This document shows positions 10,740 to 59,682 of a DNA stretch of 64,000 bases, piece by piece (positions within the stretch are counted from its first letter, which is position 1; every line of letters starts with the position of its first letter). The DNA is from Candidatus Woesebacteria bacterium (lineage in GTDB: Bacteria; Patescibacteriota; Microgenomatia; UBA8517): contig CP055308.1 in assembly GCA_013374855.1 (NCBI GenBank), positions 725,310 through 789,309 on the forward strand, in the 5' to 3' direction. The position numbers and the translations under genes are program-made. Under the pieces are notes generated by a model. That model searched no databases, was not told the origin of the DNA, and worked only from the letters and a program-made list of their open reading frames with translations.

Positions 10740-10844
10740 ATACTAAAAAATAGTAAAACAAAAAAAATAACAAAGCAAATTAACAACTGAGACACAAAAA
10801 ACTACCAAGGAAAAGCTCACAAAAAAGGAGAAAAGTTGTAAAAA

Positions 10845-11438: not shown

Positions 11439-11439
11439 T

Positions 11440-11754
11440 ATAGAACAATATTTTCCAACTTGTCAAGAGGCAACTTCTCCACTTTATCAACTCTACAAAT
11501 AATTTCACCAATTCTGATACACGAAAACAGAAATTCTAAACTCCAAATCCTAAACAAATGATTAATGGCTAATGGTCAATGGTTAAGGTGTTTTGTTTAT
11601 GGTTTGGAATTTGTAAAATTGGATATTGTTTGAGATTTAGGATTTAGATATTAGGATTTATTGCATCAGCCATCGGTAAATTGTTATTTGTCTAGAATTT
11701 AGATATTAGAATTTAGAATTTATTGCATTAACCATCAACCATTAATCATTAATA
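11440..11754 (-). promoter_or_regulatory. pilA upstream regulatory region with a -35/-10-like pair and direct and inverted repeats
   Basis: On the minus strand a TTGACA is at 11466-11461 and a TATATT at 11442-11437. Two copies of an ATTTAGATATTAG(G/A)A...TTTATTGCAT motif sit at 11641-11666 and 11697-11729. Imperfect inverted repeats ATGATTAATGGCTAATGGTCAATGGTT (11558-11584) and AACCATCAACCATTAATCATTAAT (11730-11753) flank them. Confidence 0.4.
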
Positions 11755-12966: not shown

Positions 12967-12971
12967 AGATG

Positions 12972-14030: not shown

Positions 14031-14083
14031 AGGGCAGCTACATCATTATAACAACAATACCACAAAACACCAAGAAACAAAAT

Positions 14084-16535: not shown

Positions 16536-18485
<1,950 letters not shown>

Positions 18486-39367: not shown

Positions 39368-40321
39368 TTGAAAGATCTCTCTCATTTTTTCTATAATTTT
39401 GCAATGCCCAACAACAAAAGATTAAAAGCATACCTATACCTACTTTTAGTATCTATAATTTGGGGTGCAGCAGGACCTGTAATTAAGTATACCCTTTCCG
39501 GTATCTCTGCTATACCATTTCTGTTCTATCGTTTTCTTATTTCCTCTACAATTTCTTTAATAATTCTTTTAAAAAACAAAAATCTGTTTCCTCCACTCTC
39601 AAAATTACCACTTGTAATACTATACTCAATCTTTGCTGTAAGCCTTTCACTCGGTTTCCTTTTCATGGGGCTTGAAAAAACCACAATGCTTGAAACCGTT
39701 ATTATTACCACCTTCAATCCTCTTCTTATAACATTAGCTGGAGCATTGTTTTTCAGAGATCAAATAACCAAACAAGAAAAACTCGGAACCGCTATCGCAT
39801 TTGCCGGCACTGCTATTGCTGTATCTCAACCTTTGTTTAATGGAGAAGATGGCACCACTCTTTCGGGAAACATTCTGGTTTTTTCCTACTTAATTACCAA
39901 CACCGCCGGGGCTATACTTGCCAAAAAATTAGCAAGAAATAACATATCGCCAACTTTCACTTCCAACTTTTCTTTTATCATCGGTCTTATCACACTTACT
40001 CCCTTTGCTCTAAAAGAAAAGGAACTAGCCTTCCAATCAATTTATAACTTAAGTCCCAACTTCCATCTTGGTGTTTTGTACATGGCAATTATTTCCGGGA
40101 ATTTAGCCTACTACCTTTGGGTTAGAGGACAAAAAACAATAGAAATAAGCGAGGCGTCACTTTTTTCCTATCTTCAACCTCTGTTTTCCACCCCACTTGC
40201 CGTACTTTGGCTTGGAGAGACAATAACCCCAATATTTATAATAGGAGCAACTCTTATTGCAACAGGTGTGACAATTGCAGAAAGCAAAAAAAGTCTTGTT
40301 GCCTCATTAAGAAGGCAGTGA
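39368..40321 (+). CDS. EamA/DMT-family transporter
   Basis: 10 TM helices in two EamA-like halves (..LVSIIWGAAGPVIKY..). Confidence 0.65.
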   Translation: MKDLSHFFYNFAMPNNKRLKAYLYLLLVSIIWGAAGPVIKYTLSGISAIPFLFYRFLISSTISLIILLKNKNLFPPLSKLPLVILYSIFAVSLSLGFLFMGLEKTTMLETVIITTFNPLLITLAGALFFRDQITKQEKLGTAIAFAGTAIAVSQPLFNGEDGTTLSGNILVFSYLITNTAGAILAKKLARNNISPTFTSNFSFIIGLITLTPFALKEKELAFQSIYNLSPNFHLGVLYMAIISGNLAYYLWVRGQKTIEISEASLFSYLQPLFSTPLAVLWLGETITPIFIIGATLIATGVTIAESKKSLVASLRRQ

Positions 40322-40333
40322 TATAATTTAATT

Positions 40334-40636
40334 ATGAAAGCGGGAATTCATCCAAAATGGTATCCGGATTGTAAAGTAACCTGTGCTTGTGGAAACACAT
40401 TCACAATTGGTGCAGCAGTGCCTGAGATAAAAGTTGAAGTATGTTCAGCTTGTCACCCATTTTACACAGGTCAAATGAAATATGTCGACACATCGGGCCG
40501 TGTTGAAGCTTTCTTAAACAAAAGAAGCAAAGCTAAAAAGAAAGTTATTTCCAAGAAAGAAAAGAGGCTTCTCAAGAAACAAAAAAGGATTGAAAAAGAG
40601 CTTGAAAAACCTGAAACTTTGGCTGAATTAAGATAA
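40334..40636 (+). CDS. rpmE: 50S ribosomal protein L31 type A with Lys-rich C-terminal extension
   Basis: [33 protein letters not shown], then about 30 extra residues ([30 protein letters not shown]). Confidence 0.85.
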
Positions 40637-40659
40637 AATCTTCCTCTAAACTAGACTCT

Positions 40660-41355
40660 ATGGAAAACTTCCAAACTATATACATTGAAGTAAAAGGTGC
40701 AACAGGTGGAGACGAGGCGAAATTGTGGGCAACAGATCTATTGAGAATGTACCTAAAATATGCAACGCGCAAAGGATGGAAAGCCGCTCCTGCAGATGAA
40801 AATACACTTATTGTAAAAGGCTTTGAGGCCTTTGATTGTCTTAAAAATGAAACAGGAGTACACCGCGTTCAAAGAATACCAGTAACAGAAAAAAGAGGAC
40901 GAATTCACACTTCAACCGCCACAGTTGTAGTATTGCCTGAAATAAAAGAAAGCGAAATAAATATTGATCCAAAAGACATTGAGATTCAATTTTTCAGAGC
41001 TGGCGGTCACGGCGGACAAAATGTGAACAAAGTTTCAACTGCAGTAAGAATAATTCATAAACCCACAGGAATTGTAACAACAGCTTCTCAAGAAAGGTTT
41101 CAGGAACAAAACAGACAAATTGCAATGTCTTTGCTTCGCTCAAGACTTTGGGAATTAGAAGAAGAAAGAAAATCAAGAGAAATAGCAAATTACCGCTCCC
41201 CTATTGGAAGAGGAAAAAGATCAGAAAAAATAAGAACCTATAATTTTCCCCAAGACAGATTAACTGACCACAGAATCGGCAAATCTTTTGGAAATCTCGA
41301 AGACATACTTGATGGCAATCTAGACAAAGTAATAGAACTAACAAAAAATTTGTAA
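40660..41355 (+). CDS. prfA: peptide chain release factor 1-like protein comprising domains 2-4 only (N-terminal domain 1 absent)
   Basis: GGQ motif ([14 protein letters not shown]). The PVT tripeptide ([23 protein letters not shown]) is the RF1 PxT type. It aligns to E. coli RF1 from about residue 112. Only 231 aa, starting 23 nt after rpmE. Confidence 0.75.
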
Positions 41356-41370: not shown

Positions 41371-42171
41371 CTAGGATCTAAAATCCATTAGCTCTCCCCT
41401 TTTCTGCAAAATACCAAATAACATTTTCCCAATTTTTCTAATTCTTAAAACTGCCTGAGATATTCTTTTATCTGAGACCATAGCTCCCATAAAATAATGT
41501 TTTCCCCCCAATTCAAATATGCCACAATTATTTACCCAATAAACATCTTCAATTTTAGCTGTTCCAGTCTTTGTGCCCAAAATGTTTATCTCTATCTGAT
41601 CAAAAAGATAATAAATATTTCGAGAAGTTCGAAGTTTATCCCTCAAAAATTTCCAATTCTTCCCACTTTTAGAATAAATAAACTGGAAAATAGTCAAGAA
41701 ATCAAAAAGTGAAAATTTACTAACCACTTCATCATTTTTTTCCAACAAAACGGCATTTTTCAACCCCCATATATTCTTTGCTCTGTCCTGTAGAAATTTT
41801 CTCTCTGGTAGGAATTCTTTGGATAAAATCAAAGTTGAACTGTTGCAACTGTATTTAATCATCAGCCCCATTAAGGTCAATGCATCAACAAAAACCCTAT
41901 TTTTTCCACCAACTATATCAACCAACACATCGGTACCGGTGCCCTCCAAATCATTTTTTTGAACCTTGACAACTCTGTTCTTTATCTTGCCTTCATCAAT
42001 CAATCTTAACAACTCTGCAGCCAAAAAAACTTTTACAAGACTTGCAGCGGGAAGAGCTGTCTTGGCGTTCTTTTCGTAAATCACGCAGCAAGCTCCATCT
42101 TTTAATAATTCAGCCAGAAGAAAAGATTCAGAAATTAAGCCAGACATTTTCATCCTTATAACTAACTTCAA
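41371..42171 (-). CDS. class A beta-lactamase-like serine hydrolase family protein
   Basis: SxxK (PAASLVKVF), an SxN-like motif (YSCNSS) and KTG (GTKTGTA), in class A order and spacing. Confidence 0.5.
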   Translation of the reverse strand: MKLVIRMKMSGLISESFLLAELLKDGACCVIYEKNAKTALPAASLVKVFLAAELLRLIDEGKIKNRVVKVQKNDLEGTGTDVLVDIVGGKNRVFVDALTLMGLMIKYSCNSSTLILSKEFLPERKFLQDRAKNIWGLKNAVLLEKNDEVVSKFSLFDFLTIFQFIYSKSGKNWKFLRDKLRTSRNIYYLFDQIEINILGTKTGTAKIEDVYWVNNCGIFELGGKHYFMGAMVSDKRISQAVLRIRKIGKMLFGILQKRGELMDFRS

Positions 42172-42172
42172 G

Positions 42173-43438
42173 TCAACTAACTATCTTCATGGGAACAGAA
42201 AAACCAGTACCAGCGTTTATTTTTCCTTTTGAGGATCCAAACTGAGATTCCAAACAACCAAACCCTTCTACACTAACTTTTATCTCTTCGTTATCGTTCC
42301 ACCAATAAACTCTATGCAAAATTCTGACCTCTTCCTCATTACCCCCAATTCTTATTTTGGTGCGGAGAGGTTCAAGATCTTCTTGGCCAAGCCAAAATAC
42401 CTCATTATCAGGAACATCCTCCAACACTTCTCTTACTCTTCTAAGATTATTAGCATCCCCTCCATTTTTTCCATCCAACAAATTTTCAAACCCCCCAAAA
42501 TCACGATTTATTAGACAAACAAGAGCTTCTTTTGCCCAGGTGCGCAATCTATTATAATTTACCACATACTCAAAACCACCAGCCTCCAGTTTTATCCAAG
42601 GAAAAAAAGAAACAGTCTCCTTATCAACATTGCCATCAAACCAATATTGATTTGGAAATAGATCTGGTAATTCTCTAGAAACTAACAACAACCAGCCTCT
42701 GTATCCATAAAAAGAAGAAGTAAGAGAATTCACTATAGGTATTTTATGTCTTCTTATTACAAACTCCAGATCTCTAGAAAAACCAGATCTCACAAACTGC
42801 TCATTACTGCAAAACCTTAAAATAACATCCGGAACGTAACCACTATTATGATAATTATCCAAAAAGGTAGCTAAATCCAAAAAGTAAGCTTCTTTACCAG
42901 TTCGCTCAATCATTGCCCTAACCCGTTCGTAACCTCTCCAAAAAGGATTTTTCCTACTACCCAAAAGAAGAACTTTATTGTAATCACTACCGTTAAGCCA
43001 CTCCAGCATATGCCCCAAAAGAGAAGGTTGATTAGTCAGCCCAAGTTCTTCTTGTCTAAAATCCTGCAACCCCATTGCCTGAGCTCTTGGATTCACTTCA
43101 AGAATTCTAAATCCTTGAGTGGGATCTTTATAAACATCCAAGCCCCCATACATCATCCTAGACCCACCATAAGAATCAATAAGTAAACAGTCTTTCATAT
43201 AAGAAGAATCAGCGCCAATTTTACAAGCTTGGTCTAAACTAATAGGATTAAGTTCTATAAATTCAGATACCCTTCTAGCAATTGAAGAAAGCTCTTGATA
43301 ATCCTCTCCAGAAATTTCTAGAGGTTCGTCTGAAATTAACGTCTCCTGGATATTATCCCCTTCTGGACCAAAATAACGGGGGCTATTAGCATCAGGTAAA
43401 AGTCCTTTTCTCTCTATGCCAACAGATATTAAACTCAT
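42173..43438 (-). CDS. hypothetical protein, possibly ATP-grasp-related
   Basis: ..GFRILEVNPRAQAMG.. resembles the ATP-grasp EVN(P/A)R motif. The rest is unrecognised. Confidence 0.3.
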   Translation of the reverse strand: MSLISVGIERKGLLPDANSPRYFGPEGDNIQETLISDEPLEISGEDYQELSSIARRVSEFIELNPISLDQACKIGADSSYMKDCLLIDSYGGSRMMYGGLDVYKDPTQGFRILEVNPRAQAMGLQDFRQEELGLTNQPSLLGHMLEWLNGSDYNKVLLLGSRKNPFWRGYERVRAMIERTGKEAYFLDLATFLDNYHNSGYVPDVILRFCSNEQFVRSGFSRDLEFVIRRHKIPIVNSLTSSFYGYRGWLLLVSRELPDLFPNQYWFDGNVDKETVSFFPWIKLEAGGFEYVVNYNRLRTWAKEALVCLINRDFGGFENLLDGKNGGDANNLRRVREVLEDVPDNEVFWLGQEDLEPLRTKIRIGGNEEEVRILHRVYWWNDNEEIKVSVEGFGCLESQFGSSKGKINAGTGFSVPMKIVS

Positions 43439-47213: not shown

Positions 47214-48317
47214 CTATCTACCTACCAAAAACTCAATCACATCCCCATCCGAAACTATATAATCTTTCCCTTCACTTCTTACCTTGCCTGCATCACGCGC
47301 TGCTTTCCAACCTCCAAAACTGACAAATGTTTTAAAATCAACTACATCTGCCTTTATAAACTTCTGACAAAAATCAGAATGAATTACAGAAGCCGCCTCC
47401 TGTGCATTGGTACCACTTTTGATAGTCCAAGCACGCACCTCTTTAACCCCTGCCGTTAAAAAGCTAATAAGGCCCAAGGTTGAAAAAGCTTTTCTAATAA
47501 GCCTCTCCAACCCAAGTTGTGAAATTCCAAGTGAAGCTAAATATTCTTTCTGTTCTTGCTCCGAAAGCCCTGCTAACTCACTTTCAACTTTTGCTGAAAC
47601 ACAAATAACTTGATCCTCTTTTAAGTTTAGCCTTTCTGAAAAATAAGAAGACACCTCATCTGCCCTTTTAAGATCCTCTTCATCCACGTTCAAAACAATA
47701 ATTACAGGCTTGGCAGTCAAAAGCCCCAACATTTTTGATAATCTTACCTCATCATCCTTTAAATCAAGACTTCTAACAGGTATTCCTTTAGCAAGAGCTT
47801 CTTTAAACCTACAAATAATTTCCCAGTTGCGTTTTGCTTCTTTATCAGGAGTATTACCCGGATCTTTTTGCTTTTCCAAAGTTTGAAGATCAGAAAGTGC
47901 TAGCTCTGTCTCAACAACCAGAAAATCATCCTGAGGCGAAACAGAACCTTCCTTAACTACAGAAGGATCAGAAAAGACACGAATCACATGGCAAATAGCT
48001 GAAGTTTCCCTAATATGGGCTAAAAATTTATTACCCAACCCTTCCCCTTTTGAAGCACCAGCAATAAGCCCGGCAATATCTACAAACTCAACAGTCGAAG
48101 GAGCAATAGGTGGCAAGTAAGATAAATTTTCTTCTTTTTGAACCACTTCAGCGAGTTTGATCAGTCGGTAATCAGGCACCGGCACTACTCCAATATTTGG
48201 TTCAATAGTAGCAAAAGGAAAATTGGCAACATAAGCCTGCTGCTTTTTAAGAAGAGCGTTAAAAAGAGTGCTTTTACCTACATTCGGCAGTCCAACTATT
48301 CCGACCGATAGGTTCAT
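47214..48317 (-). CDS. ychF: ribosome-binding ATPase YchF
   Basis: MNLSVGIVGLPNVGKSTLFNAL P-loop, and a C-terminal TGS domain. Confidence 0.9.
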   Translation of the reverse strand: MNLSVGIVGLPNVGKSTLFNALLKKQQAYVANFPFATIEPNIGVVPVPDYRLIKLAEVVQKEENLSYLPPIAPSTVEFVDIAGLIAGASKGEGLGNKFLAHIRETSAICHVIRVFSDPSVVKEGSVSPQDDFLVVETELALSDLQTLEKQKDPGNTPDKEAKRNWEIICRFKEALAKGIPVRSLDLKDDEVRLSKMLGLLTAKPVIIVLNVDEEDLKRADEVSSYFSERLNLKEDQVICVSAKVESELAGLSEQEQKEYLASLGISQLGLERLIRKAFSTLGLISFLTAGVKEVRAWTIKSGTNAQEAASVIHSDFCQKFIKADVVDFKTFVSFGGWKAARDAGKVRSEGKDYIVSDGDVIEFLVGR

Positions 48318-49950
48318 GTCCCAACTTTTCGGTGGAAGTCAGAGCCAGTTGTGGTAGTGGTATGTGACATAAGACTTCTACCTCACTCCTTTCTTTTATA
48401 ATTACTTTCTCTATTATATCTCGAATGAAGTTCTTTTTGTCATACAACTTAAGGCTTTTGAGAGTCTTTCTTGCTTCAGCACATAATTCATCAGCCTCAA
48501 TGTTGACTACTTCGGGTGAGACTCTGGCTTTTAGCTCCTCTAATTGCCTTTGATATCCCTCTTTCTTTCGTCTGGCTGCCCTTACTAACTCCATATACTG
48601 GTCAAACTCCATCACACCTGAACCATAGGCTTTGGCGTAGCGATTGATTTCTTCTGTCAGTTTGTCGATTTGCTCCTGAATCTTTAATCTCTCTTGGGTA
48701 TCTGCTGATCGGTTTGCCTGTTCTCGAATCCATTCCTCAGCGTGCTTTTTAAGGAGCTCTGAATTAGTTAAATGGTTTGTCAATTCTTTCCAGACCAATG
48801 CGTCTAAAACTCTGGCATTTACCCCTCCAATGTGGCAACGGCGTTGTTCTTTGGGAAAATGGTGTAATCTTTCTTCACAGCGGTAGTAGTAGTGTCCGTT
48901 TCTGTTACAACCATCTCCTGCCCTACGGTTACCACATCCACACCACAATACCTCTGAGAGAAGATAATCAAACTTTCTGTGCTTCTTAGCATATCTTCGG
49001 TTGTATTCCATAATCTCTTGGGCTTTATCGTATAAAAATCTGTCCTCCATAATTATCGGCACCTTGAAGGGATACCACTCCTCTTTGGGTCGAAGGCGAC
49101 GGCTATTTTTCTTTACTTTACGATATTTATCATTTTTAATCCTAGTTTTAGACTCTACAGCCTCATGCTTATTGTAATAAGCGATTCCTGTCCAGTAGGT
49201 TTCGCAACGAAGCATTCTTGTTATCGAACCTTTCGTCCAAAAATCACTTCTTCTTTTCCTAGGCTTAATACCCAAATCGTATAAACGCCTAATAATACCG
49301 TTTATGGATACTCTTTCGATCACAAACCAGTCAAAAACTAATTTTATTGTCCGTATTTCTTCTTCGTTTCTCTCCCAGTGAGCAGGCGTGGTATCGGTTC
49401 TCTTAACATAGTTGTAGCCATACAAGGCACTCCCGCTTATGACAACGCCGTTTTTAGCTTTGTAGAGTTTACCTCTCCTGAAGCGCTCGGCTATCTTTAC
49501 CCTCTCATAATCATGGAAACAGCCCAACACATTTCTCATAAGACCTTGTTCTTCATTTATTGGATTAATATCGTGGAGGGAAATAACTTTGATCCCCGCT
49601 TCTTCAAATTCTCTAAGGAGAACAAGCTGATATGTAAAATCCCTCGATAGACGACCAATATCATAAACATACAGGACTTGAATTTCCTGTCTTTTAATTG
49701 AGTCACGAAGTGCGTCTAAACCTGGTCGAGCCAACATCGTGCCTGTCCAGCCATCATCCAAGAACATGTGCTTATCTGAGAGAATGTTGCCGTCAGCCTT
49801 AATTCGATTTTTAATCTCATCGACTTGTGACTCTATCGTTTGCTCGTTCTCTTGCCTTCCAGTTGAAACTCTGGCATAAAGCCCCGTAACTAGCGGTTGC
49901 TTGGTTTGACCGTTTCCTGTATGCTGTGTGTTAGGCAGTAAATCTTCCAT
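48274..49950 (-). CDS. large serine recombinase (resolvase/invertase N-domain plus recombinase domain plus zinc ribbon/coiled coil)
   Basis: LYARVSTGRQ...IESQ (catalytic Ser region), ..YVYDIGRLSRD.., then a C-terminal Cys cluster (CGCGNRRAGDGCNRNGHYYYRC) and coiled coil. Confidence 0.85.
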   Translation of the reverse strand: MEDLLPNTQHTGNGQTKQPLVTGLYARVSTGRQENEQTIESQVDEIKNRIKADGNILSDKHMFLDDGWTGTMLARPGLDALRDSIKRQEIQVLYVYDIGRLSRDFTYQLVLLREFEEAGIKVISLHDINPINEEQGLMRNVLGCFHDYERVKIAERFRRGKLYKAKNGVVISGSALYGYNYVKRTDTTPAHWERNEEEIRTIKLVFDWFVIERVSINGIIRRLYDLGIKPRKRRSDFWTKGSITRMLRCETYWTGIAYYNKHEAVESKTRIKNDKYRKVKKNSRRLRPKEEWYPFKVPIIMEDRFLYDKAQEIMEYNRRYAKKHRKFDYLLSEVLWCGCGNRRAGDGCNRNGHYYYRCEERLHHFPKEQRRCHIGGVNARVLDALVWKELTNHLTNSELLKKHAEEWIREQANRSADTQERLKIQEQIDKLTEEINRYAKAYGSGVMEFDQYMELVRAARRKKEGYQRQLEELKARVSPEVVNIEADELCAEARKTLKSLKLYDKKNFIRDIIEKVIIKERSEVEVLCHIPLPQLALTSTEKLGHEPIGRNSWTAECR

Positions 49951-50009
49951 AGGTTTATTTGCTTATCAGAGGTCTTCACGCTGTTAACAGGAGACCTCTG
50001 ATTTTTTGA

Positions 50010-50216
50010 TTAAGTTTTCGTCATAGACTTCTCAAATAACTGAGCCAGCTTGATATTGCTTATTCTCCAGGCTTTACCCAGCTTTGCCGCTGGTAATTGC
50101 CCACGCCTTGCCATTCGATAAATGGTTATCTTAGCAAGTTTTAGCTTTTCAGCTGCCTCATTTATAGTTAAGTATTCTTGGTTTTCCATAAGGCTAAATG
50201 ATATTGTTTGATACAC
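50010..50216 (-). CDS. excisionase/MerR-like helix-turn-helix DNA-binding protein (candidate recombination directionality factor)
   Basis: LTINEAAEKLKLAKITIYRMARRGQLPAAKLGKAWRI is an HTH_17-type motif, immediately upstream of the recombinase. Confidence 0.55.
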   Translation of the reverse strand: MYQTISFSLMENQEYLTINEAAEKLKLAKITIYRMARRGQLPAAKLGKAWRISNIKLAQLFEKSMTKT

Positions 50217-50224
50217 TCAACACA

Positions 50225-50443
50225 CTACCCAGAGGGTCTATGTAAGTCAAGTGTGATCGCTAATGATCTTTTATCTACCTTTTGTCTTTCTATAATGTTT
50301 TGTCTTGCCATCATAAAAACACGGTCATAGACTAGCTTCAGGCGCTCGGTGCTTTCTGGCTTATCGGTATAAATAAACTTGATGTTAGGTGACATTATCT
50401 TTCTCATGTTTGTAATACTTTCCTGCACCAATTTGCTCATCAT
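50225..50443 (-). CDS. hypothetical small protein
   Basis: ORF only. Overlaps its neighbour by 59 nt, so the start is uncertain. Confidence 0.2.
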   Translation of the reverse strand: MMSKLVQESITNMRKIMSPNIKFIYTDKPESTERLKLVYDRVFMMARQNIIERQKVDKRSLAITLDLHRPSG

Positions 50444-51014
50444 TCCAATCCTTGATCACTTCGCTAACCCTTCTACTTAACTCGATCTCTTCTGGTGTTA
50501 AGGGTTTTTGCTGGGTCTCATCAATGTAATCTTTTGAAACTTCATATTTCCCCACAGACTCTCCCCACTCGATTCTTGTCATCTCCCAAAGTTGCCGAAC
50601 TTCCTGAACAGTTGCTGGCTCACCTGCCTGCATTTGTTTCTTCAAGGCTTGAAGTTTGTTCCAAAAAGCCTCGGTAATTAGATACGCTCGCTTCTGTCGT
50701 ATCTGGGTTGTCTTATGTTTCAGTCCTTCTAAATCTTCAGCCAGCTTCGCATCTGCCCGCTCCACCCAACGGTATTTAACCGACCAACGCTCAATCGTTC
50801 TTTCTGAGGGTAAATCGCCGAGTTTAGAGCCAAAAATCACCGACAACTCTCCTGCTGAACTCCGACTTATTTGCTCCCATGCTTGAATTAGTTTGGAAAC
50901 ACTCCCAACTTCGCAATACAGCAAGAAAGCTGTATATTGCTTTTCGGTCTCCCCAGGCATTTTTGATGTTGTTGGTTTTTCAGGTTTTGTTGTTTGCATA
51001 TAATTCTTCTCCAT
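50385..51014 (-). CDS. hypothetical protein (possible HTH near N-terminus)
   Basis: ..QYTAFLLYCEVGSVSKLIQAW..ERTIERWSVKYRW.. is HTH-like. No family assigned. Confidence 0.3.
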   Translation of the reverse strand: MEKNYMQTTKPEKPTTSKMPGETEKQYTAFLLYCEVGSVSKLIQAWEQISRSSAGELSVIFGSKLGDLPSERTIERWSVKYRWVERADAKLAEDLEGLKHKTTQIRQKRAYLITEAFWNKLQALKKQMQAGEPATVQEVRQLWEMTRIEWGESVGKYEVSKDYIDETQQKPLTPEEIELSRRVSEVIKDWNDEQIGAGKYYKHEKDNVT

Positions 51015-51666
51015 GCGGGCAAACGCCAGTTGATTCCCAAAGCGACTCGTCTATTTCCTGCATCGTTTTTATGTCTAAGTTATTTGCGTCTTTCTCTAAC
51101 ATCTCCCGATACTCTTCATTACTCCTATGACCATTGCGAAGATTACATCCACACTTAAAGGAACTTAAAGGTTTATAATCGGCTCTTTGCATCTTTGCAA
51201 CGGATTGAGGAGAATTGTCGTCATTCTCTTTAGAGACTTTCTGTTGCAAATCTGAATGAGGTTGTTGTGCTTCTGCAACGACGCCTTGCAAATCTGCAAT
51301 ATGTTCTTGCAGGTCAACGATCTTTTTCTCTTTAACAATTTCAGTTAGCTTCTCCCGAATATCAAAATCAACCACATACACCCTCTTGCCTTGTTTTCTC
51401 CAAAAACCAAGCGAGTAGAGCTTGCCTGCGTTTCTGCTCACCTTAGAAGGACTCCAACCTATCAACCAACCGATTTCCCAAAGCGCATACTCAAAGCTTC
51501 CATATACTTCTCCATGACTTTTATCCCAATCAGCAAGGCACGAGTAGCTCAAATCCCACAAGATATACTCCTGATCAGACAACAACTTCCTATGAAGAAG
51601 TAAAAACCTCCCTCTAAAATGACGGTCAAACCCACTTAATCTGTTCATAATCTTTGTTTGTTGCAT
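50980..51666 (-). CDS. hypothetical protein
   Basis: ORF with good coding appearance and no recognisable motif. Confidence 0.3.
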   Translation of the reverse strand: MQQTKIMNRLSGFDRHFRGRFLLLHRKLLSDQEYILWDLSYSCLADWDKSHGEVYGSFEYALWEIGWLIGWSPSKVSRNAGKLYSLGFWRKQGKRVYVVDFDIREKLTEIVKEKKIVDLQEHIADLQGVVAEAQQPHSDLQQKVSKENDDNSPQSVAKMQRADYKPLSSFKCGCNLRNGHRSNEEYREMLEKDANNLDIKTMQEIDESLWESTGVCPHGEELYANNKT

Positions 51667-51677
51667 ACTGATTCTTA

Positions 51678-51977
51678 TTAGACTTTTTCTGAATATAGCC
51701 TCTCTTTCAGGCTTTTAATGACTGTTACTGCCTTACGAAAGTCCACTAAAACCTCTGGAGAGTTTTCCTCCGCAAAATTGAAAGCCCTAAGAATTTCTTG
51801 TCGACTTGGGGAATCTTTCAGAACAAAAACTGATCTATTAGGATTTGAAGAAGGCTGGATTGATATAAGCTCCAAGCCTCGGAGCATCAAAAAAACTGCC
51901 GAGTAGAAGCTACTTGTGTAATACTGATTATCTTTTGATTTTTGACCAGACATAAATACGCCTTTCTCCAGCCACAA
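51678..51977 (-). CDS. hypothetical small protein
   Basis: ORF only. Confidence 0.25.
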   Translation of the reverse strand: MWLEKGVFMSGQKSKDNQYYTSSFYSAVFLMLRGLELISIQPSSNPNRSVFVLKDSPSRQEILRAFNFAEENSPEVLVDFRKAVTVIKSLKERLYSEKV

Positions 51978-52449
51978 AAAAAGGACTGCATTACTACAGC
52001 TACACTGCCATTTCTTGCGTGTTGCTATCGTGCAGTCCGTCTATTGCGTTCGATTATGTCTGAAAACCTCTTGCAGGAAAAAAGAGGATTTGCCCTTGGC
52101 ATTCCGAAGATCCTGCTGCATGCCCTTATTGCGAGTTGCTTTCGTGCGTTCTTGCTTTCCGAGTCCTATCGTTTGCGAATTTCAACTTAAGGCAGTTGTG
52201 CCTTAGTAGCTATATTTTTACAAAATTCCTATCTTCTTGTCAAGAGTTTCTTGATTAAAAATGTAGTAAGAAAGTCTCCAAATTGATACAATATAAGTAT
52301 AAAGCCTAAACCCCTTCTGGGGCATGGCTAAGAAAACCCATCACAGGCGGTAAGCTCCTCGTCAGAGCACCTGTGATGGGTCATATCCCGAAAGGGGTAT
52401 GGGTAGTCGAAAGGCTATCGCTGGCGGGGAGCTTTTTGTTTCCCTTGAT

Positions 52450-52479
52450 TTGACAATCTCCCCCAAGCGAAGTTAATAT
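52450..52479 (+). promoter_or_regulatory. sigma70-like promoter P1 (TTGACA-17/18-TAATAT) upstream of the secreted-protein gene pair
   Basis: GATTTGACAATCTCCCCCAAGCGAAGTTAATATAGCC lies about 20 nt upstream of the ATG at 52498. Confidence 0.4.
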
Positions 52480-52497
52480 AGCCAACCATATCAAAAT

Positions 52498-53166
52498 ATG
52501 ACAATGAAAATAAAAAATAAGGCTCGTATTATCGCTCCGTTTCTGTTTGTTGCCCTCCTGTTATTGGCTGGTGGTCTGTATTGGTATAAGTCATCCCAGG
52601 ACAGGTTTGCTGCTCCTCGTAAAGATGCTCCGATGGTTAAATTTCGAGTTGATAAACAAAATACCCTCATGGCGGTTACTGGCAATCTTGTCTACTACGG
52701 CTTTGTTAAAGATGAGGAAGCACTCAAATATGCTCTGGAATACACCAAAGACAATACTCCTGGTAAGCCTGGGGCAATCAAGGTGGGCAACAACACCATC
52801 GATACCGAGACCGTCTATGATATTTCTCAATCAATGAACGCCTGGGAGATTGCCCGAATTCTTCTTAATGAAGGCACGCCCAGTGTCAGGGATTGCGATC
52901 ATGGTTGTGAAGAATATAACCCCTTTACTCCAGCCCTTCTGCCTGGAGGAGATATTGCTCCTACTTGGCAAGAGCGTATGCGGGCTAAATATAGCTGGGT
53001 AAAAAACTATGATGACTGTCTTAAAGCTATTGGTCATGATGGGGGTCAAGTAACTTCTGAGGAGGCTTCCAAGCGCACTGGTCACCCAAGAGTGTGTAAT
53101 ACAGCAGACGGTCGTTATTTTATTCAAGGAAAAGAAGGCTGGAGTGATTATCCGCCTTACCCGTAA
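52498..53166 (+). CDS. hypothetical exported protein (signal anchor; Cys-containing)
   Basis: MTMKIKNKARIIAPFLFVALLLLAGGLYW signal anchor, and ..CDHGCEEY.. in the body. Confidence 0.4.
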   Translation: MTMKIKNKARIIAPFLFVALLLLAGGLYWYKSSQDRFAAPRKDAPMVKFRVDKQNTLMAVTGNLVYYGFVKDEEALKYALEYTKDNTPGKPGAIKVGNNTIDTETVYDISQSMNAWEIARILLNEGTPSVRDCDHGCEEYNPFTPALLPGGDIAPTWQERMRAKYSWVKNYDDCLKAIGHDGGQVTSEEASKRTGHPRVCNTADGRYFIQGKEGWSDYPPYP

Positions 53167-53179
53167 AGGAGGTGAGAAT

Positions 53180-53890
53180 ATGAAGATAAAAATTGTCATT
53201 GCACTACTGGTTATTGCCATTTTGGGAGGTGTTTTTGTTTGGTCAAGACAAAGTAGCAAGACCGCTTTATTACCATCAAAACAAACAACTGATGTAACAA
53301 CCCAGGAAGAGACGGTTATCCGTAATTTCATGGCAGAGCCTAACCTCAAGCTGTCTTTTGTTAAGACTGATTTACCGTTTCCAAATTACTTCAGGGTCGG
53401 TAAAGTCACTCAGGTAAATGGTGGTGAGAATATGGAGGCGGTAGAGGAGTGGACACGCCAGGTTAATGTTTATCGCCAAAAGGAATTACTTAATGGACAA
53501 TGCTCGGTTTATGAGTATCACATTGATCCCAGAAGTCATTCCTTGGTAGCAGTTGTCGTTGCGGGGTTAAAGCCTAATGAAATTGAGGCATACAAGGTAA
53601 AGGGTATTGAGTGTAAGACCGAGGTTCACAACTTGCCAGAAATATCTAAGGCAGAGGCTGAAAGTGTTGCCATGGAATATCTAAAACGAGTCTTACCCAA
53701 CTTTGACCAAATTAAAGACAGGTTTGTTTATTCCCATGGTAAAACGCACAGTTGGCTGTGGGAGGACAAAAGCTATAAACTGCCAGATGGTCTAGTGGGT
53801 AGACCTTACTCGTATCCCACGATCCGCATATCGGTAGACAACACCAAAAACATTCAGTATTGGAATACCGTCTCGTTATTCCAAAACTAA
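53180..53890 (+). CDS. hypothetical exported protein, N-terminus paralogous to the preceding gene
   Basis: MKIKIVIALLVIAILGGVFVW signal anchor. The track ORF begins at 53144. Confidence 0.4.
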   Translation: MKIKIVIALLVIAILGGVFVWSRQSSKTALLPSKQTTDVTTQEETVIRNFMAEPNLKLSFVKTDLPFPNYFRVGKVTQVNGGENMEAVEEWTRQVNVYRQKELLNGQCSVYEYHIDPRSHSLVAVVVAGLKPNEIEAYKVKGIECKTEVHNLPEISKAEAESVAMEYLKRVLPNFDQIKDRFVYSHGKTHSWLWEDKSYKLPDGLVGRPYSYPTIRISVDNTKNIQYWNTVSLFQN

Positions 53891-53906
53891 GGTCTATCGG
53901 GAGACC
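53891..53906 (+). terminator. short stem-loop after the secreted-protein pair
   Basis: GGTCT-atcgg-GAGACC followed by TTATCATT. Confidence 0.3.
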
Positions 53907-54092
53907 TTATCATTCCTCCCATTCAACGATTTCTTGCCCGCCAGCGGTGAGGAGAGATTTTCTGGCGTGATAGACAGTAGGCTCTGGGAGGTCGGACATT
54001 CCTCCATCTACGAGCGGTAGCATCCGAATTTCTACCCTCAGTAGCCTACCAAGCTGAAACATAAAGAAAAATGGAGAAAATATCAATTCGAT

Positions 54093-54121
54093 TTGACAAT
54101 ATCTTTTAACGAAGTTAAATT
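54093..54121 (+). promoter_or_regulatory. second copy of the promoter-like motif (P2)
   Basis: GATTTGACAATATCTTTTAACGAAGTTAAATTACC shares GATTTGACAAT and CGAAGTTAA blocks with P1 at the same spacing. Confidence 0.3.
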
Positions 54122-54332
54122 ACCACTGGTTTTGACGCTCGAAATACACCCTTTATAAGGGGAAACTCTCCAGGCGAGCCCAATCAAGTATGGAGGTTTT
54201 AGGAGTCCTCCCAGAACCACTGCAGATTACCTCAACAAATCCCCAACGAGGCTGGTGAAGCTGAATAGAGGTAAAAACTATGCCACCCCAGGCACGAAAA
54301 CCCCACAGAAGGCGACACACGGGGCAACGGGG

Positions 54333-55166
54333 TTAATACAACTTAGTATTCCTTCGCAAGACTTCGTCGGCGATTTTCTGCATAAAATGCAGATCTAAAT
54401 CTATGTTAGTATAAAAATCTAAAAGTAGTGGGTAAAACACCTTTTTTGCTTGCCATGACTTCGCTCCACCGCCGTGAGCTACGGCACATCGCACATATTT
54501 ATAAAAACGGTTCACAAATCTTTTAGTCACTTTGTAACCAGCATAGACTGGTGCTCCTGTCTTAACATGCCAACCTGTTCTCTCTCTGACGGTTTTAAGG
54601 GAAACGATTTCGTTTACCAACTCTGTGTCTTTTTTCTTATACCACCCCTCAAAAAATCTCCATAACTGCAAAACTCTATAATCAATCGGTTTGCTTTCAT
54701 CACGAGCCTCTCGATAAAAATGGAGAACACGCCTGGGATTTTTCTTCTTATTTAAGAAATCAAGATTTCTGCAGAATCCGTCGCCTCCGTTAATAACTTG
54801 CGTTTTCTTCCATTCTTCTGCCTCCTCGAAGCTGCCTTCATGCAGTAACCATGTCTTTGAGTTATATTGACAGGTCACAGGGAAAGCAAAATAGGCATAG
54901 GTTTGATATTTAGCTGCGCAGGCGCTCAAAGTCATGAGCGCAAAACCATAAGCCTGTATAAGAATTTCTGATTCTTTAACTTTCCTTTTCTCTAATTCAG
55001 AAACATCCACCGCTAAACCTGAAAGATTCTGAAAACGCTCTGGGGGATTACTGCTGGGGAGATTAGAACTCGAAGTTGGATCGGCAACAAATCTTCCTCC
55101 CTGGAAACTTAGAGTTCCTTGTATACAGAGTCCCGTCCGTAAATTCTTAAAGATAACTTCGCTCAT
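54333..55166 (-). CDS. hypothetical protein with C-terminal R-x4-H motif (possible HEPN-like)
   Basis: ..KYVRCAVAHGGGAK.. It is the last gene of the five-gene cassette. No family assigned. Confidence 0.3.
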   Translation of the reverse strand: MSEVIFKNLRTGLCIQGTLSFQGGRFVADPTSSSNLPSSNPPERFQNLSGLAVDVSELEKRKVKESEILIQAYGFALMTLSACAAKYQTYAYFAFPVTCQYNSKTWLLHEGSFEEAEEWKKTQVINGGDGFCRNLDFLNKKKNPRRVLHFYREARDESKPIDYRVLQLWRFFEGWYKKKDTELVNEIVSLKTVRERTGWHVKTGAPVYAGYKVTKRFVNRFYKYVRCAVAHGGGAKSWQAKKVFYPLLLDFYTNIDLDLHFMQKIADEVLRRNTKLY

Positions 55167-55534
55167 ATTTCCTTTTTATGCTCTGTCAATTTCTGCTCTA
55201 AATCTTTGATAACTTTACCGCTTTGACTAACAAACTTTTTGTAGTAATTCTTGGTTCTGTCTATTACTTGGTGAATAAAAACTGGTTTTCCGTCTCTCCC
55301 TACTCGCTCGCCAATAAGTTGCTCATGATTCCACCTATGATCCTTTGAAAAACTATCCTTGCCCTTTTTCTTTACGCCCAATAAATCGTATGCCTTTATT
55401 GAGTCATGAAGACTAAGTCTCACAAACTTATGCCCGCATTCGAGCAGATGATCTATTCGGCTTCCCCGTCGGGTTGTCGTTTTTATTCTTCTTTCAGCAT
55501 TACAAGCTGAGCAAAAAACCTTAGCCATTTTCAT
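55163..55534 (-). CDS. small zinc-ribbon protein
   Basis: N-terminal CSAC-x19-ECGH (C-x2-C...C-x-H). Confidence 0.35.
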   Translation of the reverse strand: MKMAKVFCSACNAERRIKTTTRRGSRIDHLLECGHKFVRLSLHDSIKAYDLLGVKKKGKDSFSKDHRWNHEQLIGERVGRDGKPVFIHQVIDRTKNYYKKFVSQSGKVIKDLEQKLTEHKKEI

Positions 55535-56405
55535 TTTTGAAAACTCCAGATTGTTGTAACTTACGCACCTCTCCGAGCAGATAGTCTAAGTCCATATAAA
55601 AAGGTATCGATTTTTCCGCTCCAAGGATCAGCGCACCTCCATCAATCACAATCCCTTTGTGACTATCAAAGGTTACCTTACCGCCAGTTGCTATAAAACC
55701 TTGATCAAAATCAATCGTTCCACCACTGGAAGATCTCAAAAAAAGTTTTCCGCCGAATTTTGTATCAATAACATGACCGTCAAGATAATTTTTGATTTCT
55801 ATAATTTGTAACCTGCTGGGAGGAGTGAATTTGAGATGTAGAAAAATGTCTCTGAGGCTACCCCTAACAATTACCTCAGCGCCTTTTGTCTCCACATCCC
55901 AGCTACCAACACTTGCCATAATTTCATTTTCGACAATTTCCAGCGTTTCTCCTTTGACTGACTTGAAATAGGCACTAACCAGCGGAGGTTCGTCCTTATT
56001 TAGTTGTTTTACTGATAAAAGATCTTTTTGATCCGCTTTAAGTAAAACTCCATCGGGAGATATAAATACAATTCCTCCAAGAGCGATCTCCAACGGATAT
56101 TCCATATCTTCAAAAAGATAATGAGGTTTATTACCCTGCTTACAAAAAGGCTTACTGTCAGCAATTTTTATTCGTTTACAGCTTAATCTTTTTCTTGTAG
56201 CATCATCGTGATGTTTTGCACACAAAAGAGTTATTCCTTTGGCATTATGCTTTCTGGCTTCGCTGAAAGGAGGATCGAAGTGTTCGTATTCGCAAAACAG
56301 AGATCCACACAGCACACAGCCATAGCCACACCGTTGCCTTACCTCTCGTTTGACATTAAAAGGTATATCTCTCGATAAACCATATTTATTTACTTTCTTG
56401 GACAT
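55521..56405 (-). CDS. HNH endonuclease domain protein with Gly-rich C-terminal domain of unknown function
   Basis: ..REVRQRCGYGCVLCGSLFCEYEHFDPPFSEARKHNAKGITLLCAKHHD.. is an HNH finger. The track ORF extends to 56525; the internal Met at 56405 is the likely start. Confidence 0.6.
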   Translation of the reverse strand: MSKKVNKYGLSRDIPFNVKREVRQRCGYGCVLCGSLFCEYEHFDPPFSEARKHNAKGITLLCAKHHDDATRKRLSCKRIKIADSKPFCKQGNKPHYLFEDMEYPLEIALGGIVFISPDGVLLKADQKDLLSVKQLNKDEPPLVSAYFKSVKGETLEIVENEIMASVGSWDVETKGAEVIVRGSLRDIFLHLKFTPPSRLQIIEIKNYLDGHVIDTKFGGKLFLRSSSGGTIDFDQGFIATGGKVTFDSHKGIVIDGGALILGAEKSIPFYMDLDYLLGEVRKLQQSGVFKNENG

Positions 56406-57123
56406 ATGCGCTTTTGTGAAAGAGATTTTTAACCAAGCTGTCTGCAAATCCAAAAACTTGAAAAACCATTTCCCTGTCAACAAATCTTTTAGCAAAGCCC
56501 CAAACAATGGGATTATCCTTTGCATCTAAATCAACCTCTTTTACTTCTCTTGTTTTAATATCAAGCCTTTTTACCTTTCTGGCTGCTACATTTTTCGTTA
56601 TTTTCTTGATGTTATAATGCAAATAAGGATTTCTAATTGAGTCTTTGAAGCTAATTAACCTTTTTTCTGTTTCTTTATCAATAACACCTAATTGTTTCGC
56701 CTCATTGATAGCTGGATTAAGCTCCATGCTTTCAATCCTATCCCACTCGCTTTCTTTGTAAGTGTTCCCAAATTTCTTTCTGACAATGGCATGTTTGAGA
56801 GAAAACTCAACTAAAACAGCGCTTAGTGAGATGGCAGCTCCATAAAGTCCGAATAGAATACACTCCCGAATTTCATCATAAAGAAAGCCAATTGTAGGGA
56901 TAGCAATATCTGGCGGAGGAGAGAATTTAGTTATGTTAGCTAAGGCAATGGTTTTTCTTTGGGAAAATATCTTTTCGACAGCTTGTTCAGGAGTCAATCT
57001 TTGGGGTTCGTCAAACTTTATTCCTTGCTTCTGGAGTTCCTTTATTGTTTCTGGCTTGCTGATGATGTGGGTTGCACCCTTAGCCAGTTCAGTTAGAAGA
57101 TCATTTATGTTTTTCATAACCAT
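56386..57123 (-). CDS. DUF4145/HEPN-like protein (tentative)
   Basis: ..YDEIRECILFGLYGAAISLSAVLVEFSLKHAI.. plus ..SIRNPYLHY.. (R-N-x3-H) resemble the DUF4145/HEPN pattern, recalled from memory. Confidence 0.35.
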   Translation of the reverse strand: MVMKNINDLLTELAKGATHIISKPETIKELQKQGIKFDEPQRLTPEQAVEKIFSQRKTIALANITKFSPPPDIAIPTIGFLYDEIRECILFGLYGAAISLSAVLVEFSLKHAIVRKKFGNTYKESEWDRIESMELNPAINEAKQLGVIDKETEKRLISFKDSIRNPYLHYNIKKITKNVAARKVKRLDIKTREVKEVDLDAKDNPIVWGFAKRFVDREMVFQVFGFADSLVKNLFHKSAYVQESK

Positions 57124-57148
57124 TTACAAAATTGCCTTGGTTGTTTAA

Positions 57149-57754
57149 TTAGACACGCAGGAACAATCCCAAAACAATAAGAATTATCCCTATCATAAAT
57201 AAAATCAACTGTCCGTTTTCAATCTTTTGAGCATCCAGGTGTATAAAATTCAGAATTTTGTTTATCTGTTTCTGCCTCTTTTTAAGATCGGCATCATATT
57301 CTTTCTTAAAGCTCTCTGAGTATGAAAGTATTTCTTTTTCTGGGCTGATGTCGAGACGATAAAACTTTTCAAGAAAATCAAGCGCCTGCTTCTGCTGAAA
57401 TAAATTACTGCTTTCCTCTAATTGAATTTCAAATCGCTTTGATTCAAGACCAAAAAACAGTGAAGCTACACCCAATATCAATGACACGCCCAAACCAGCA
57501 AAACCCAGTTTTGTCAGCAGTGAAACATCAAAGTTTCCTTGTAGGGCGACAAAGATAGAAATTGTTCCACCAGAAATGGTAATTAACTGTAGTCTGAAGT
57601 TTTCGGAGTCTTTTAGCAGACTTTTATGTCTCTCAGAAATTCTTTTTAAGTCTTCAGTGACTTTATCCCTAAAATCTGATAGTGCTTTCTCACCATAGGG
57701 CTTCAGAAATTCTTCAAGATCCTTTTTAGGATTAAAGTTTTTTATATCGATCAT
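57149..57754 (-). CDS. three-TM membrane protein with cytoplasmic helical N-domain (possible effector/pore component)
   Basis: TM helices LQLITISGGTISIFVALQG, LGFAGLGVSLILGVASLFF, and C-terminal LILFMIGIILIVLGLFLRV. Confidence 0.4.
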   Translation of the reverse strand: MIDIKNFNPKKDLEEFLKPYGEKALSDFRDKVTEDLKRISERHKSLLKDSENFRLQLITISGGTISIFVALQGNFDVSLLTKLGFAGLGVSLILGVASLFFGLESKRFEIQLEESSNLFQQKQALDFLEKFYRLDISPEKEILSYSESFKKEYDADLKKRQKQINKILNFIHLDAQKIENGQLILFMIGIILIVLGLFLRV

Positions 57755-57822
57755 ACTTATTTTTTACAAAAACTGCCCAATTAAGGGCAGTTAAACCAGT
57801 AATCTTTGAGAGAAGTATCTGA

Positions 57823-59604
57823 TTACACCTCTTTTGTAACCAGAACTTCTTCTCCTAACATGTCAATGACTTTGACTGCCACTTTGGTTGGTTTTTCGCT
57901 TATTTCAAGCTCATATTCGCCCTTAACCAAATCGTTCTGTTTTTCTGGGACATCCGAGAAACCAATCTTGAATACTTCACCGTCATAATTTGTATCAACC
58001 AACACTACATCGATCATTGATCTGAGATCTGGGATTTTTTTCTGCAAAAGTCCTGGTTCAAGCTCTAAGCGTTTAATGATTGTAGGGGAGATAAAGGATG
58101 TGATTTTAATCTTTACTTTGTCTTTGCCTATTCGCTTGATTTCTACTTCCGCTTTTGATGGTTCGTAACTTACAAAATTCTTGTCTTTGAGGTCAAAGAT
58201 AATAAACTGACGCATGCGTTTCTTGGTTCTGGTGTCTTTATAAGGCTGTTTTTTATTCCATTCTTCAATCCAAGCATCTACCTTTGTCTCCCGACCAAGT
58301 GAGATAACCACCACATCTCTATCCTCGTCTGGGCGCTTATTGAGCTCGTCAACGATTAGCTGGAGGTCAAGTAGGGTTAAGGGATGATTAAAATCTATAA
58401 TTTTTACCAGTTCACCACTATCCCGCAAACCGTCAAAGAAAGTGTCCGTCTTAACCTTAGTAATTCCATATTGCTGGATTGCCAGTTCCTTTGCTTCAGT
58501 TTTTAAGATTCTCAAATCGTAGTTATTAACCTTGTAAATGGCGAAGGTAGGATATTTTGTTTCCTTTTGACCCTTGATAATTTTTTGTAGCCTTTTACTT
58601 GTAACCTGAATTGCCCCCTTATTTACATCAACCCCAATCCAGCGTCTGCCCAGTTTTTGAGCAGCAGCACAAGTTGTTCCAGAACCCATAAAACAGTCCA
58701 GAATCAAATCATCTTCATCCGAAGAAGCCAGGATTACTTTTTCCAAAAGCCTTTCTGGCTTTTGAGTTGCATAATCTGTTCTTTCCAAAGCCATCGCATT
58801 TATAGCTGGTATCCTCCACACATCGGTTGGTAGTCTTAAATCGTTTTTAGCTCTGGTAGCTGATTCAACACCCGTAGCCAATCTTCTCAACACTTCTTCT
58901 CCTCGTTTCTCCAAAATATTCTGAGGGTTAAAGGTGAAGTTAGCACTTTTTGTGTAAAACAATATATTATCGTGTTTTTTACCATACTCATTTTTACTTA
59001 CCCCGCCCGTTTCGTAATTCCAAACAATTTCGGCTTTTAACCCATCTTCGCCAAACACTTCGTCCATTAAAACCTTGATGTAATGCACCATCCTATAATC
59101 CAAGTGAACATAAATACTGCCTGTTTCTGCCAGCAATTCTTTCAATAAAATTAACCGCTCATACATAAACTGGAAGTATTCGTCCCTTTTCCAAATATCT
59201 TCATACATTGTCTGCTGAATGATCGATTCGCTGTCTTCTTCGATCCTGCCTAAATCTTTTAATCCCCGCAGTTCAACTTTTCTCATGTAGTCTTTGTTGC
59301 TGGCAAATGGAGGATCGATATAAATAAGGTCAACTTTACCTCTAAATCCAAGTTCTAAGAGTGTTGCTAAAACTTCTTTGTTATCTCCATGAAATAAGAG
59401 ATTGTGCCAATTTTTTTCAAGCTCTTTGTATTCTGGAATTTTGATTATTTTATTTGTCTGTTTTGGATCAAATGCTTCAATTAGCTGTGTCGGGTAACCT
59501 TGAACTTCTTCAATCGGTTTTTTACCAACCCAGTGGAGCATTGGTCTGCCTTTTGGCGTCGTGATTTTTAGCTTTTTAGCGCTATCTTTCATACCCTTTG
59601 ACAA
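57823..59604 (-). CDS. mod: Type III restriction-modification DNA methyltransferase (Mod), beta-class N6-adenine/N4-cytosine MTase
   Basis: Motif IV DPPF (LIYIDPPFASNKDY) precedes motif I (LDCFMGSGTTCAAAQ), with a variable region between, as in Type III Mod. Confidence 0.8.
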   Translation of the reverse strand: MSKGMKDSAKKLKITTPKGRPMLHWVGKKPIEEVQGYPTQLIEAFDPKQTNKIIKIPEYKELEKNWHNLLFHGDNKEVLATLLELGFRGKVDLIYIDPPFASNKDYMRKVELRGLKDLGRIEEDSESIIQQTMYEDIWKRDEYFQFMYERLILLKELLAETGSIYVHLDYRMVHYIKVLMDEVFGEDGLKAEIVWNYETGGVSKNEYGKKHDNILFYTKSANFTFNPQNILEKRGEEVLRRLATGVESATRAKNDLRLPTDVWRIPAINAMALERTDYATQKPERLLEKVILASSDEDDLILDCFMGSGTTCAAAQKLGRRWIGVDVNKGAIQVTSKRLQKIIKGQKETKYPTFAIYKVNNYDLRILKTEAKELAIQQYGITKVKTDTFFDGLRDSGELVKIIDFNHPLTLLDLQLIVDELNKRPDEDRDVVVISLGRETKVDAWIEEWNKKQPYKDTRTKKRMRQFIIFDLKDKNFVSYEPSKAEVEIKRIGKDKVKIKITSFISPTIIKRLELEPGLLQKKIPDLRSMIDVVLVDTNYDGEVFKIGFSDVPEKQNDLVKGEYELEISEKPTKVAVKVIDMLGEEVLVTKEV

Positions 59605-59682
59605 AACTGTTAATAAATGTTATTATAATTATGCTGAAAACTGGAGCGAGAGCGTGATGCCTCAAACCAGTTTTTTTGCATT

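Follow-up and report, generated by a model that had tools for sequence, protein, structure and literature searches.

The prfA gene considered in the present work occupies positions 40660–41355 (stop codon included) on the forward strand of the window, by which we mean the whole stretch of 64,000 nucleotides that was analysed. It starts with ATG, stops with TAA and has 231 codons for a protein of 231 amino acids, and profile, PDB, model and Foldseek matches assign it as a prfA orthologue, encoding a release factor 1 (RF1) without domain 1. The conserved upstream neighbour on the same strand is rpmE (40334–40636, stop codon at 40634–40636), which codes for a bL31 protein of 100 amino acids and is identified by Pfam and NCBIfam matches together with its adjacency. 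The two genes are separated by a spacer of 23 nucleotides (40637–40659, +), in which there is no Shine-Dalgarno-like purine run ahead of the prfA ATG. The original prediction, made from the DNA alone, was that of a class-I release factor lacking its entire N-terminal domain 1. Canonical bacterial release factors are described as always having this domain (Burroughs & Aravind 2019, PMC6514570), and we found no description in the literature of a natural CPR RF1 without it.

The window is low in GC (about 0.33–0.44) and belongs, judging from its genes and nearest relatives, to the Microgenomates within the Patescibacteria (CPR). A block at 48274–63038 has a higher GC content (0.41–0.44) and a reversed AT skew, and contains genes for a large serine recombinase (48274–49950), an N6/N4 DNA methylase (57823–59604), a DUF3800 protein (59683–60459) and a ResIII/TnsA-like protein of 860 amino acids (60456–63038); this block is probably a defence island or a mobile element that has integrated. 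On the reverse strand at 2169–15814 there is a type IV pilus-like cluster with seven consecutive small ORFs (5346–11438) that have the pilin-type N-terminus GFTLIELLVV, and the large ORFs adjoining them may be assembly ATPase and platform genes.

Results and Discussion

The Pfam PCRF family (PF03462) matches residues 6–89 of the protein with its C-terminal half only, i.e. with profile positions 101–194 of 194 (E 8e-31), and this decoding domain 2 is encoded at 40675–40926 (+). The RF-1 domain (PF00472) is complete (positions 2–116 of 116, E 7e-38) and covers residues 97–205, which correspond to the GGQ domain 3 and the beginning of domain 4 (40948–41274, +). The tripeptide PVT, located from sequence and alignment at residues 74–76 (40879–40887, +) within a decoding segment consisting of residues 68–86, is the RF1-type PxT stop-codon reader. 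No variation is seen among 42 homologues at its P74 and T76, nor in the GGQ motif (residues 118–120, 41011–41019, +). In the alignment of these homologues (69–94% identity), PVT, GGQ, HRVQR and IHTST show little or no variation, and the invariant decoding and catalytic residues include the GGDEA helix tip, GVHRVQR, TSTAT, GGQNV and the YNxPQ region. The RF1 decoding elements are intact, that is, the GxGGDE tip of helix alpha5, PVT, the Gln of RVQR and the Thr of RIHTS. Compared to canonical RF1, the alignments place a deletion of 10 residues in a beta-hairpin of domain 2, between D46 and E47 (40795–40800, +).

The NCBIfam model for prfA (TIGR00019) aligns with the protein over profile positions 112–344 of 361 and gives 302.4 bits against a cut-off of 423.25, and the RF1 model NF001859 gives 309.1 bits against 400. 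The protein stays under these equivalog cut-offs because the N-terminus is missing. With the prfB model (TIGR00020) the score is 215 bits (cut-off 370), and the tripeptide is PVT and not SPF. Among PDB structures, an end-to-end alignment is obtained with residues 89–318 of T. maritima RF1 (E 1.4e-76), and with E. coli RF1 the alignment covers residues 110–342, in good agreement with the predicted start at about residue 112. The E-values from Pfam, NCBIfam and PDB rule out a chance match, and the assignment of the 231-residue ORF as RF1-type, with PVT and GGQ, is confirmed by these matches. The AlphaFold2 model (pLDDT 78.6, pTM 0.70) retrieves RF1 structures at the top of the Foldseek list (1rq0_A, E 3.5e-22), and the predicted fold is that of RF1 domains 2–4.

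It is important to point out that a longer RF1 ORF is impossible at this locus, because an in-frame TGA (40624–40626, +), which is located in the 3'-terminal part of rpmE but in a different frame, closes the RF frame, and none of the 11 codons between this TGA and the prfA ATG is ATG, GTG or TTG. The start 23 nucleotides past the rpmE stop, as originally predicted, agrees with the coordinates, and there is indeed no space upstream for some 110 more codons, since the TGA closes the frame and rpmE fills the DNA. In L31, Pfam assigns residues 1–63 of 100 to the core, and the remainder is a Lys-rich tail of about 35 amino acids that ends with PETLAELR (40523–40633, +). A motif at the end of the tail, RP(K/D)TL(R/K)E(M/L)L (RPxTLxEML), is conserved across the Microgenomates (L001–L021, L030, L042 and L071). 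We considered the tail as a possible remnant of RF1 domain 1, and rejected this option because the motif is also found with full-length (L042) and intermediate RF1 and because the domain-1 HMM gives E = 3. The conservation of the tail and the HMM result are consistent with the earlier statement that the tail is not RF-like. As the motif is common to Microgenomates with full-length, intermediate and short RF1, it predates the loss of domain 1. Larger bL31 proteins in CPR have already been reported (PMC9297842).

A scan also located a promoter-like extended -10 site, TTGCCT-17-TG-TATAAT, at 40299–40327 (+), 6 nucleotides before the rpmE ATG. It could possibly be the promoter of an rpmE-prfA operon with a leaderless or nearly leaderless transcript, but this is a weak candidate, the number of sites in the scan (10, with 6.8 ± 2.3 expected) being not above chance.

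We now consider how the length of RF1 varies. The full ORFs extracted from 80 loci fall into three classes. The full-length class (348–365 amino acids) is found in Chloroflexi, Myxococcota and many Patescibacteria, and also in L042, a MAG labelled Woesebacteria, whose RF1 of 358 residues is an early branch of the Microgenomates group. The intermediate class (298–315 amino acids; Levyibacteria, Curtissbacteria and others) is without roughly the first 55 residues, i.e. helices alpha1–alpha2, and keeps the final helical hairpin together with a variable linker. The short class has 231–244 amino acids. An exhaustive search of the representative library gave further genuine short clusters, namely P0123 (235 amino acids), P0124 (256, Amesbacteria), P0126 (232), P0131 (242) and P0129 (269). 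Many RF1s of this library that look short or long are fragments, high-GC frameshifted ORFs or duplicated-segment mis-assemblies (P0121, P0125, P0177, P0222 and P0230), and these were left uncounted. The library also contains a protein of 394 amino acids (P0269) in which RF1 from domain 2 onward is followed by a C-terminal methyltransferase-like region (GTGSGAIAITLA); this could be a fusion of RF1 to PrmC, or an artefact of gene calling.

In a neighbour-joining tree calculated on RF1 domains 2–4, the short clade that includes the window is monophyletic (bootstrap 94) and sister to an intermediate clade of ca 300 amino acids (bootstrap 100). The support for this sister relationship (72) and for the Microgenomates group (41), in which the earlier branches are intermediate or full-length, is moderate only. 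The 10-residue hairpin deletion and a change of EAALFA to EAK(I/L)W are common to the short clade and its sister and are absent from the earlier-branching Microgenomates, and the shared deletion is a synapomorphy. Since this remodelling is present in the short clade and its sister and not in the earlier branches, the order of events can be inferred as partial loss, remodelling and complete loss. In the first step, an RF1 of ca 358 amino acids would have lost helices alpha1–alpha2 to give a protein of ca 305. Domain 2 would then have been remodelled, by the hairpin deletion and the EAALFA to EAK(I/L)W change, and finally the remaining part of domain 1 would have been lost, yielding a protein of ca 232 amino acids. 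A second short group (L024, L033 and L076; 241–242 amino acids, bootstrap 90) is located elsewhere among the Patescibacteria. It lacks the deletion, keeping both the hairpin and the sequence EAAIFA, and thus represents an independent loss. At least one further clade of the Patescibacteria has therefore lost domain 1 completely and on its own.

In 46 of the 80 loci RF1 is immediately preceded by rpmE, at every RF1 length; these include L042 (358 amino acids), intermediates and, from the second short group, L054, L067 and L076. As rpmE adjoins RF1 of all lengths, the short gene sits at the position that prfA had ancestrally. Chloroflexi, Myxococcota and many Patescibacteria are among these 46 loci, and the rpmE-prfA adjacency is therefore not specifically Firmicute-like. 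We consider it very likely that the gene is the housekeeping prfA of a Woesebacteria-like, Microgenomates-type Patescibacterium (CPR), and that it encodes a class-I release factor reduced to a minimum, with only the decoding superdomain (domains 2 and 4) and the GGQ domain 3.

Another option is that a full-length RF1 encoded elsewhere carries out termination, and that the short protein is a specialised paralogue with a side role, for example in ribosome rescue. Such a role has precedents, as PrfH and other RF homologues without domain 1 have specialised functions (PMC6514570), and the 358-residue RF1 of L042 shows that a genome labelled Woesebacteria can have the long form. However, the short gene is in the rpmE-adjacent slot of the full-length and intermediate orthologues, that of L042 included, it nests among the longer orthologues in the tree, and its RF1-specific decoding residues are all canonical. 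When the 64-kb window and ±10 kb around each of the 80 loci were searched by tblastn with E. coli RF1 and RF2, no further RF homologue came up, the genomes are just 0.6–0.8 Mb in size, and the level of conservation is that of core translation genes. The paralogue was mentioned as the alternative in the original prediction, and with synteny and phylogeny against it we regard it as improbable.

Domain 1 could also be encoded as a separate small protein that acts in trans. It is a self-contained helical bundle, the analysis covered a part of each genome, and a remote copy of such a fast-diverging domain could escape HMMs. On the other hand, HMMs built for domain 1 from the full-length and intermediate forms, which gave 4e-22 to 2e-35 for positive controls of their own length class, detected no separate domain-1 ORF among the six-frame ORFs of the window and of 13 loci whose RF1 is short or much reduced, the best E being 0.69. 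The intermediates, moreover, show gradual erosion and not relocation, and a gene split in this way is in our view very improbable. The reading as a housekeeping RF1 composed of domains 2–4 is therefore retained in the following.

The occurrence of the short form was examined at several levels. An independent Logan assembly of the same strain (run SRR6186653) contains an identical protein with unchanged gene order. A search of 5.8 billion proteins gave at least 8,000 significant matches, and the best 120 of these, which were inspected, are 69–94% identical, have 228–264 amino acids in all cases and share a common start region. Those with a named source belong to Woesebacteria, Microgenomates or Patescibacteria, and databases list relatives as 'hypothetical protein' or 'PCRF domain-containing protein'. 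Eight GTDB species representatives (L001–L008), labelled Woesebacteria, Gottesmanbacteria or 'Patescibacteria group' and including the 615-kb chromosome OZ246397.1, have RF1s of 231–237 amino acids with frames closed upstream. In AP024680.1, a single contig of 785,860 bp, the order EamA-rpmE-RF1 (233 amino acids)-HtrA-CtpB-S18-SSB-S6-YchF is collinear with the window, and the identities between the two are 78% for RF1, 76% for EF-P, 80% for L31, 72% for S18, 70% for YchF and 54% for S6. The existence of a natural RF1 without domain 1, as predicted, is thus substantiated by the best 120 homologues, the eight representative genomes and the independent assembly. The comparison with homologues that had been suggested shows that the close relatives are short at the rpmE-prfA locus, with no normal-length orthologue at this position among them. 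More distant Microgenomates have intermediate and full-length RF1 at the same locus, as a real evolutionary loss predicts. This conservation indicates that the short RF1 is under purifying selection and that the truncation is fixed in whole clades.

The possibility that the gene results from mis-assembly or a frameshift, or is a pseudogene decaying after 5' truncation, might be suggested by the scores under curated family cut-offs and by relatives named 'hypothetical protein'. However, the independent assembly has the identical sequence, the best 120 of at least 8,000 matches agree in start region and length, the functional motifs are invariant and rpmE fills the upstream DNA, so that the probability of an artefact or pseudogene is negligible.

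Two observations concern the records used in this comparison. In the window, two genes lie between prfA and htrA on the reverse strand (41371–43438) that are absent at that position in AP024680.1; they encode a class-A beta-lactamase-like protein (266 amino acids) and a protein of 421 amino acids without Pfam match. Several binchicken/SRP co-assemblies (L008, L013–L019, L021 and others) are titled 'uncultured Gammaproteobacteria bacterium'. These labels look wrong, because the assemblies have a Microgenomates-type RF1 and the L31 tail motif.

It is instructive to compare the short RF1 with the known factors. With canonical RF1 (TIGR00019; 1RQ0; the T. thermophilus and E. coli 70S structures) it has in common domains 2, 3 and 4, PxT, the GxGGDE helix tip, RVQR, IHTS, GGQ and the RTYNFPQ region, with 40–50% identity over the common part and the same position after rpmE. 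It differs in that domain 1 (ca 105–110 residues) is gone, in the 10-residue hairpin deletion in domain 2, in EAKLW replacing EAALFA in helix alpha5, in a short C-terminal tail and in scores below the equivalog cut-offs. Of the features that define the family, it thus lacks domain 1 and an equivalog-level score, and it has the other domains, the decoding elements, GGQ and the orthology. The same architecture of domains 2–4 is found in the engineered E. coli RF1 and RF2 without domain 1 of Mora et al. (2003, Mol Microbiol 50:1467, as cited in PMC6076264). Those proteins were laboratory constructs, whereas the short RF1 is a natural, fixed state with a remodelled domain 2.

PrfH (RF-H; TIGR03072; Baranov et al. 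2006, PMC1586002; PMC6514570) is a natural RF homologue without the N-terminal domain and, like the short RF1, retains a codon-recognition-type domain and GGQ. However, PrfH is an accessory factor with a divergent decoding domain and a link to RtcB, while the decoding in the short RF1 is canonical and RtcB is not among its neighbours. In ArfB, ICT1 and C12orf65 the GGQ domain does not need a domain 1 to function, as in the short RF1, but these proteins are also without the codon-recognition domain and use a basic C-terminal tail, and their match is limited to ca 35 residues around GGQ. A PrfH-like or ArfB-like rescue factor, in place of a stop-codon release factor, would have the absence of domain 1 in common with PrfH (PMC6514570) and would fit the weak matches to TIGR03072 (69 bits, cut-off 166.65; GGQ domain only) and to the ArfB model NF006718 (51 bits, cut-off 100; residues 98–133 only), but in view of the 302 bits for prfA over the whole protein, the canonical RF1 character of the PxT decoding region and the neighbours, which are EamA, L31, a beta-lactamase-like gene and HtrA with no RtcB, this option can practically be dismissed.

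The use of stop codons bears on the function of the short RF1. Among long ORFs, TAG is the stop codon of 15 out of 64 for the window and of 38 out of 161 for the short-RF1 loci, and because it terminates ca 23% of the genes, an RF1-type activity is required. TGA ends 14 of the 64 and 32 of the 161, respectively. Since TGA is a stop and the decoding residues of the present protein are those of canonical RF1, an RF2-type factor must exist elsewhere. The RF2 of the lineage was not found by tblastn in the window or the 80 loci. We also scanned metagenomes at the DNA level for RF2, using the pattern RxSPFDxxxRRHTSF with AGR codons for Arg. This resulted in 120 loci, mostly on very low-GC (24–31%) contigs that are apparently largely marine; the complete RF2 genes among them are all full-length, and none of the 120 loci could be assigned to Microgenomates from the flanking genes. 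The supplements of a 2025 mBio survey of prfB contain no Patescibacteria, and secA, smpB, lysS and ftsX are absent from the loci examined.

The RF2 motif was also found in viral contigs, at 21 unrelated loci. Three IMG/VR contigs with a GC content of 0.57 (L202, L212 and L221) have ORFs of 221 amino acids with the RF2 motif RISPFDASKRRHTSF and without the GxGGxE helix-tip motif, and these may be short phage RF2-like proteins.

A separate observation on UGA was made for L068 (JAKLIH010000002.1, labelled 'Patescibacteria group bacterium isolate RA.bin82'). Its RF1 gene, at about 9854–10720, has two in-frame TGA codons at Trp-aligned positions. TGA occurs inside 24 of the 31 ORFs of at least 120 amino acids, and the aligned positions are W 51 times and never G. 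A tRNA of 75 nucleotides (16834–16908) has the anticodon UCA, A1:U72, G73 and a Trp-like identity. This MAG thus seems to read UGA as Trp; the recoding listed for CPR is UGA=Gly only (PMC8629427).

The role of domain 1 in release factors is debated, the two proposals being recruitment via bL12/uL11 and interplay with RF3. In E. coli, the C-terminal domain of bL12 bridges domain I to uL11, and depletion of bL12 lowers the apparent RF1 affinity from 9 to 210 nM and makes binding 150-fold slower, while no contact between RF1 and RF3 was seen (Graf et al. 2018, PMC6076264). RF1 variants without domain I are still recycled by RF3, according to Mora et al. (2003) as cited in PMC6076264. Of the contacts to the stalk and to RF3 that the original prediction ascribed to domain 1, the link to RF3 is weaker than claimed (PMC6076264). 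On the basis of the bL12/uL11 and RF3-recycling results, a factor without domain 1 is expected by analogy to be catalytically competent, minus the stalk-assisted recruitment.

In the mechanism that we propose, the short RF1 would bind UAA and UAG in the A site and open, such that GGQ reaches the peptidyl-transferase centre, where peptidyl-tRNA would be hydrolysed as by canonical RF1. Recognition of UAA and UAG and peptide release by the 231-residue protein are here inferred from its sequence. The domain-1 contact to the bL12/uL11 stalk, which speeds the binding of E. coli RF1, would not be made, so that recruitment would be diffusional and probably slower, and the release from the ribosome would be independent of domain 1. 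UGA would be read by the separate RF2-type factor. Slow-growing organisms with reduced genomes may be able to bear the cost of the lost recruitment, and CPR ribosomes are already atypical (PMC9297842). It is conceivable, although we consider it rather doubtful, that in lineages of the Woesebacteria and Gottesmanbacteria type both RF1 and RF2 are without domain 1 and RF3 is absent, such that termination as a whole proceeds without bL12/uL11 recruitment. A termination of this kind might be compensated by ribosome changes specific to the lineage, for example the enlarged bL12 reported for CPR or the conserved bL31 tail.

Conclusions

The short RF1 has a practical consequence for genome analysis, in that marker-gene pipelines may score prfA as missing in such genomes, where it falls below the TIGR00019 and other NCBIfam cut-offs; TIGR00019 is, we assume, among the GTDB bac120 markers. 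The short RF1s are also ready-made minimal factors for kinetics and cryo-EM.

For the biology of the family, the results imply that domain 1, which has been treated as universal in bacterial RF1 and RF2, is dispensable in vivo in nature. Large and widespread bacterial lineages in which an RF1 without domain 1 is fixed, with stepwise intermediates and at least one independent repeat, constitute a natural experiment, in which one can ask whether changes of the ribosome, of the stalk or of the growth regime allowed the loss to be tolerated.
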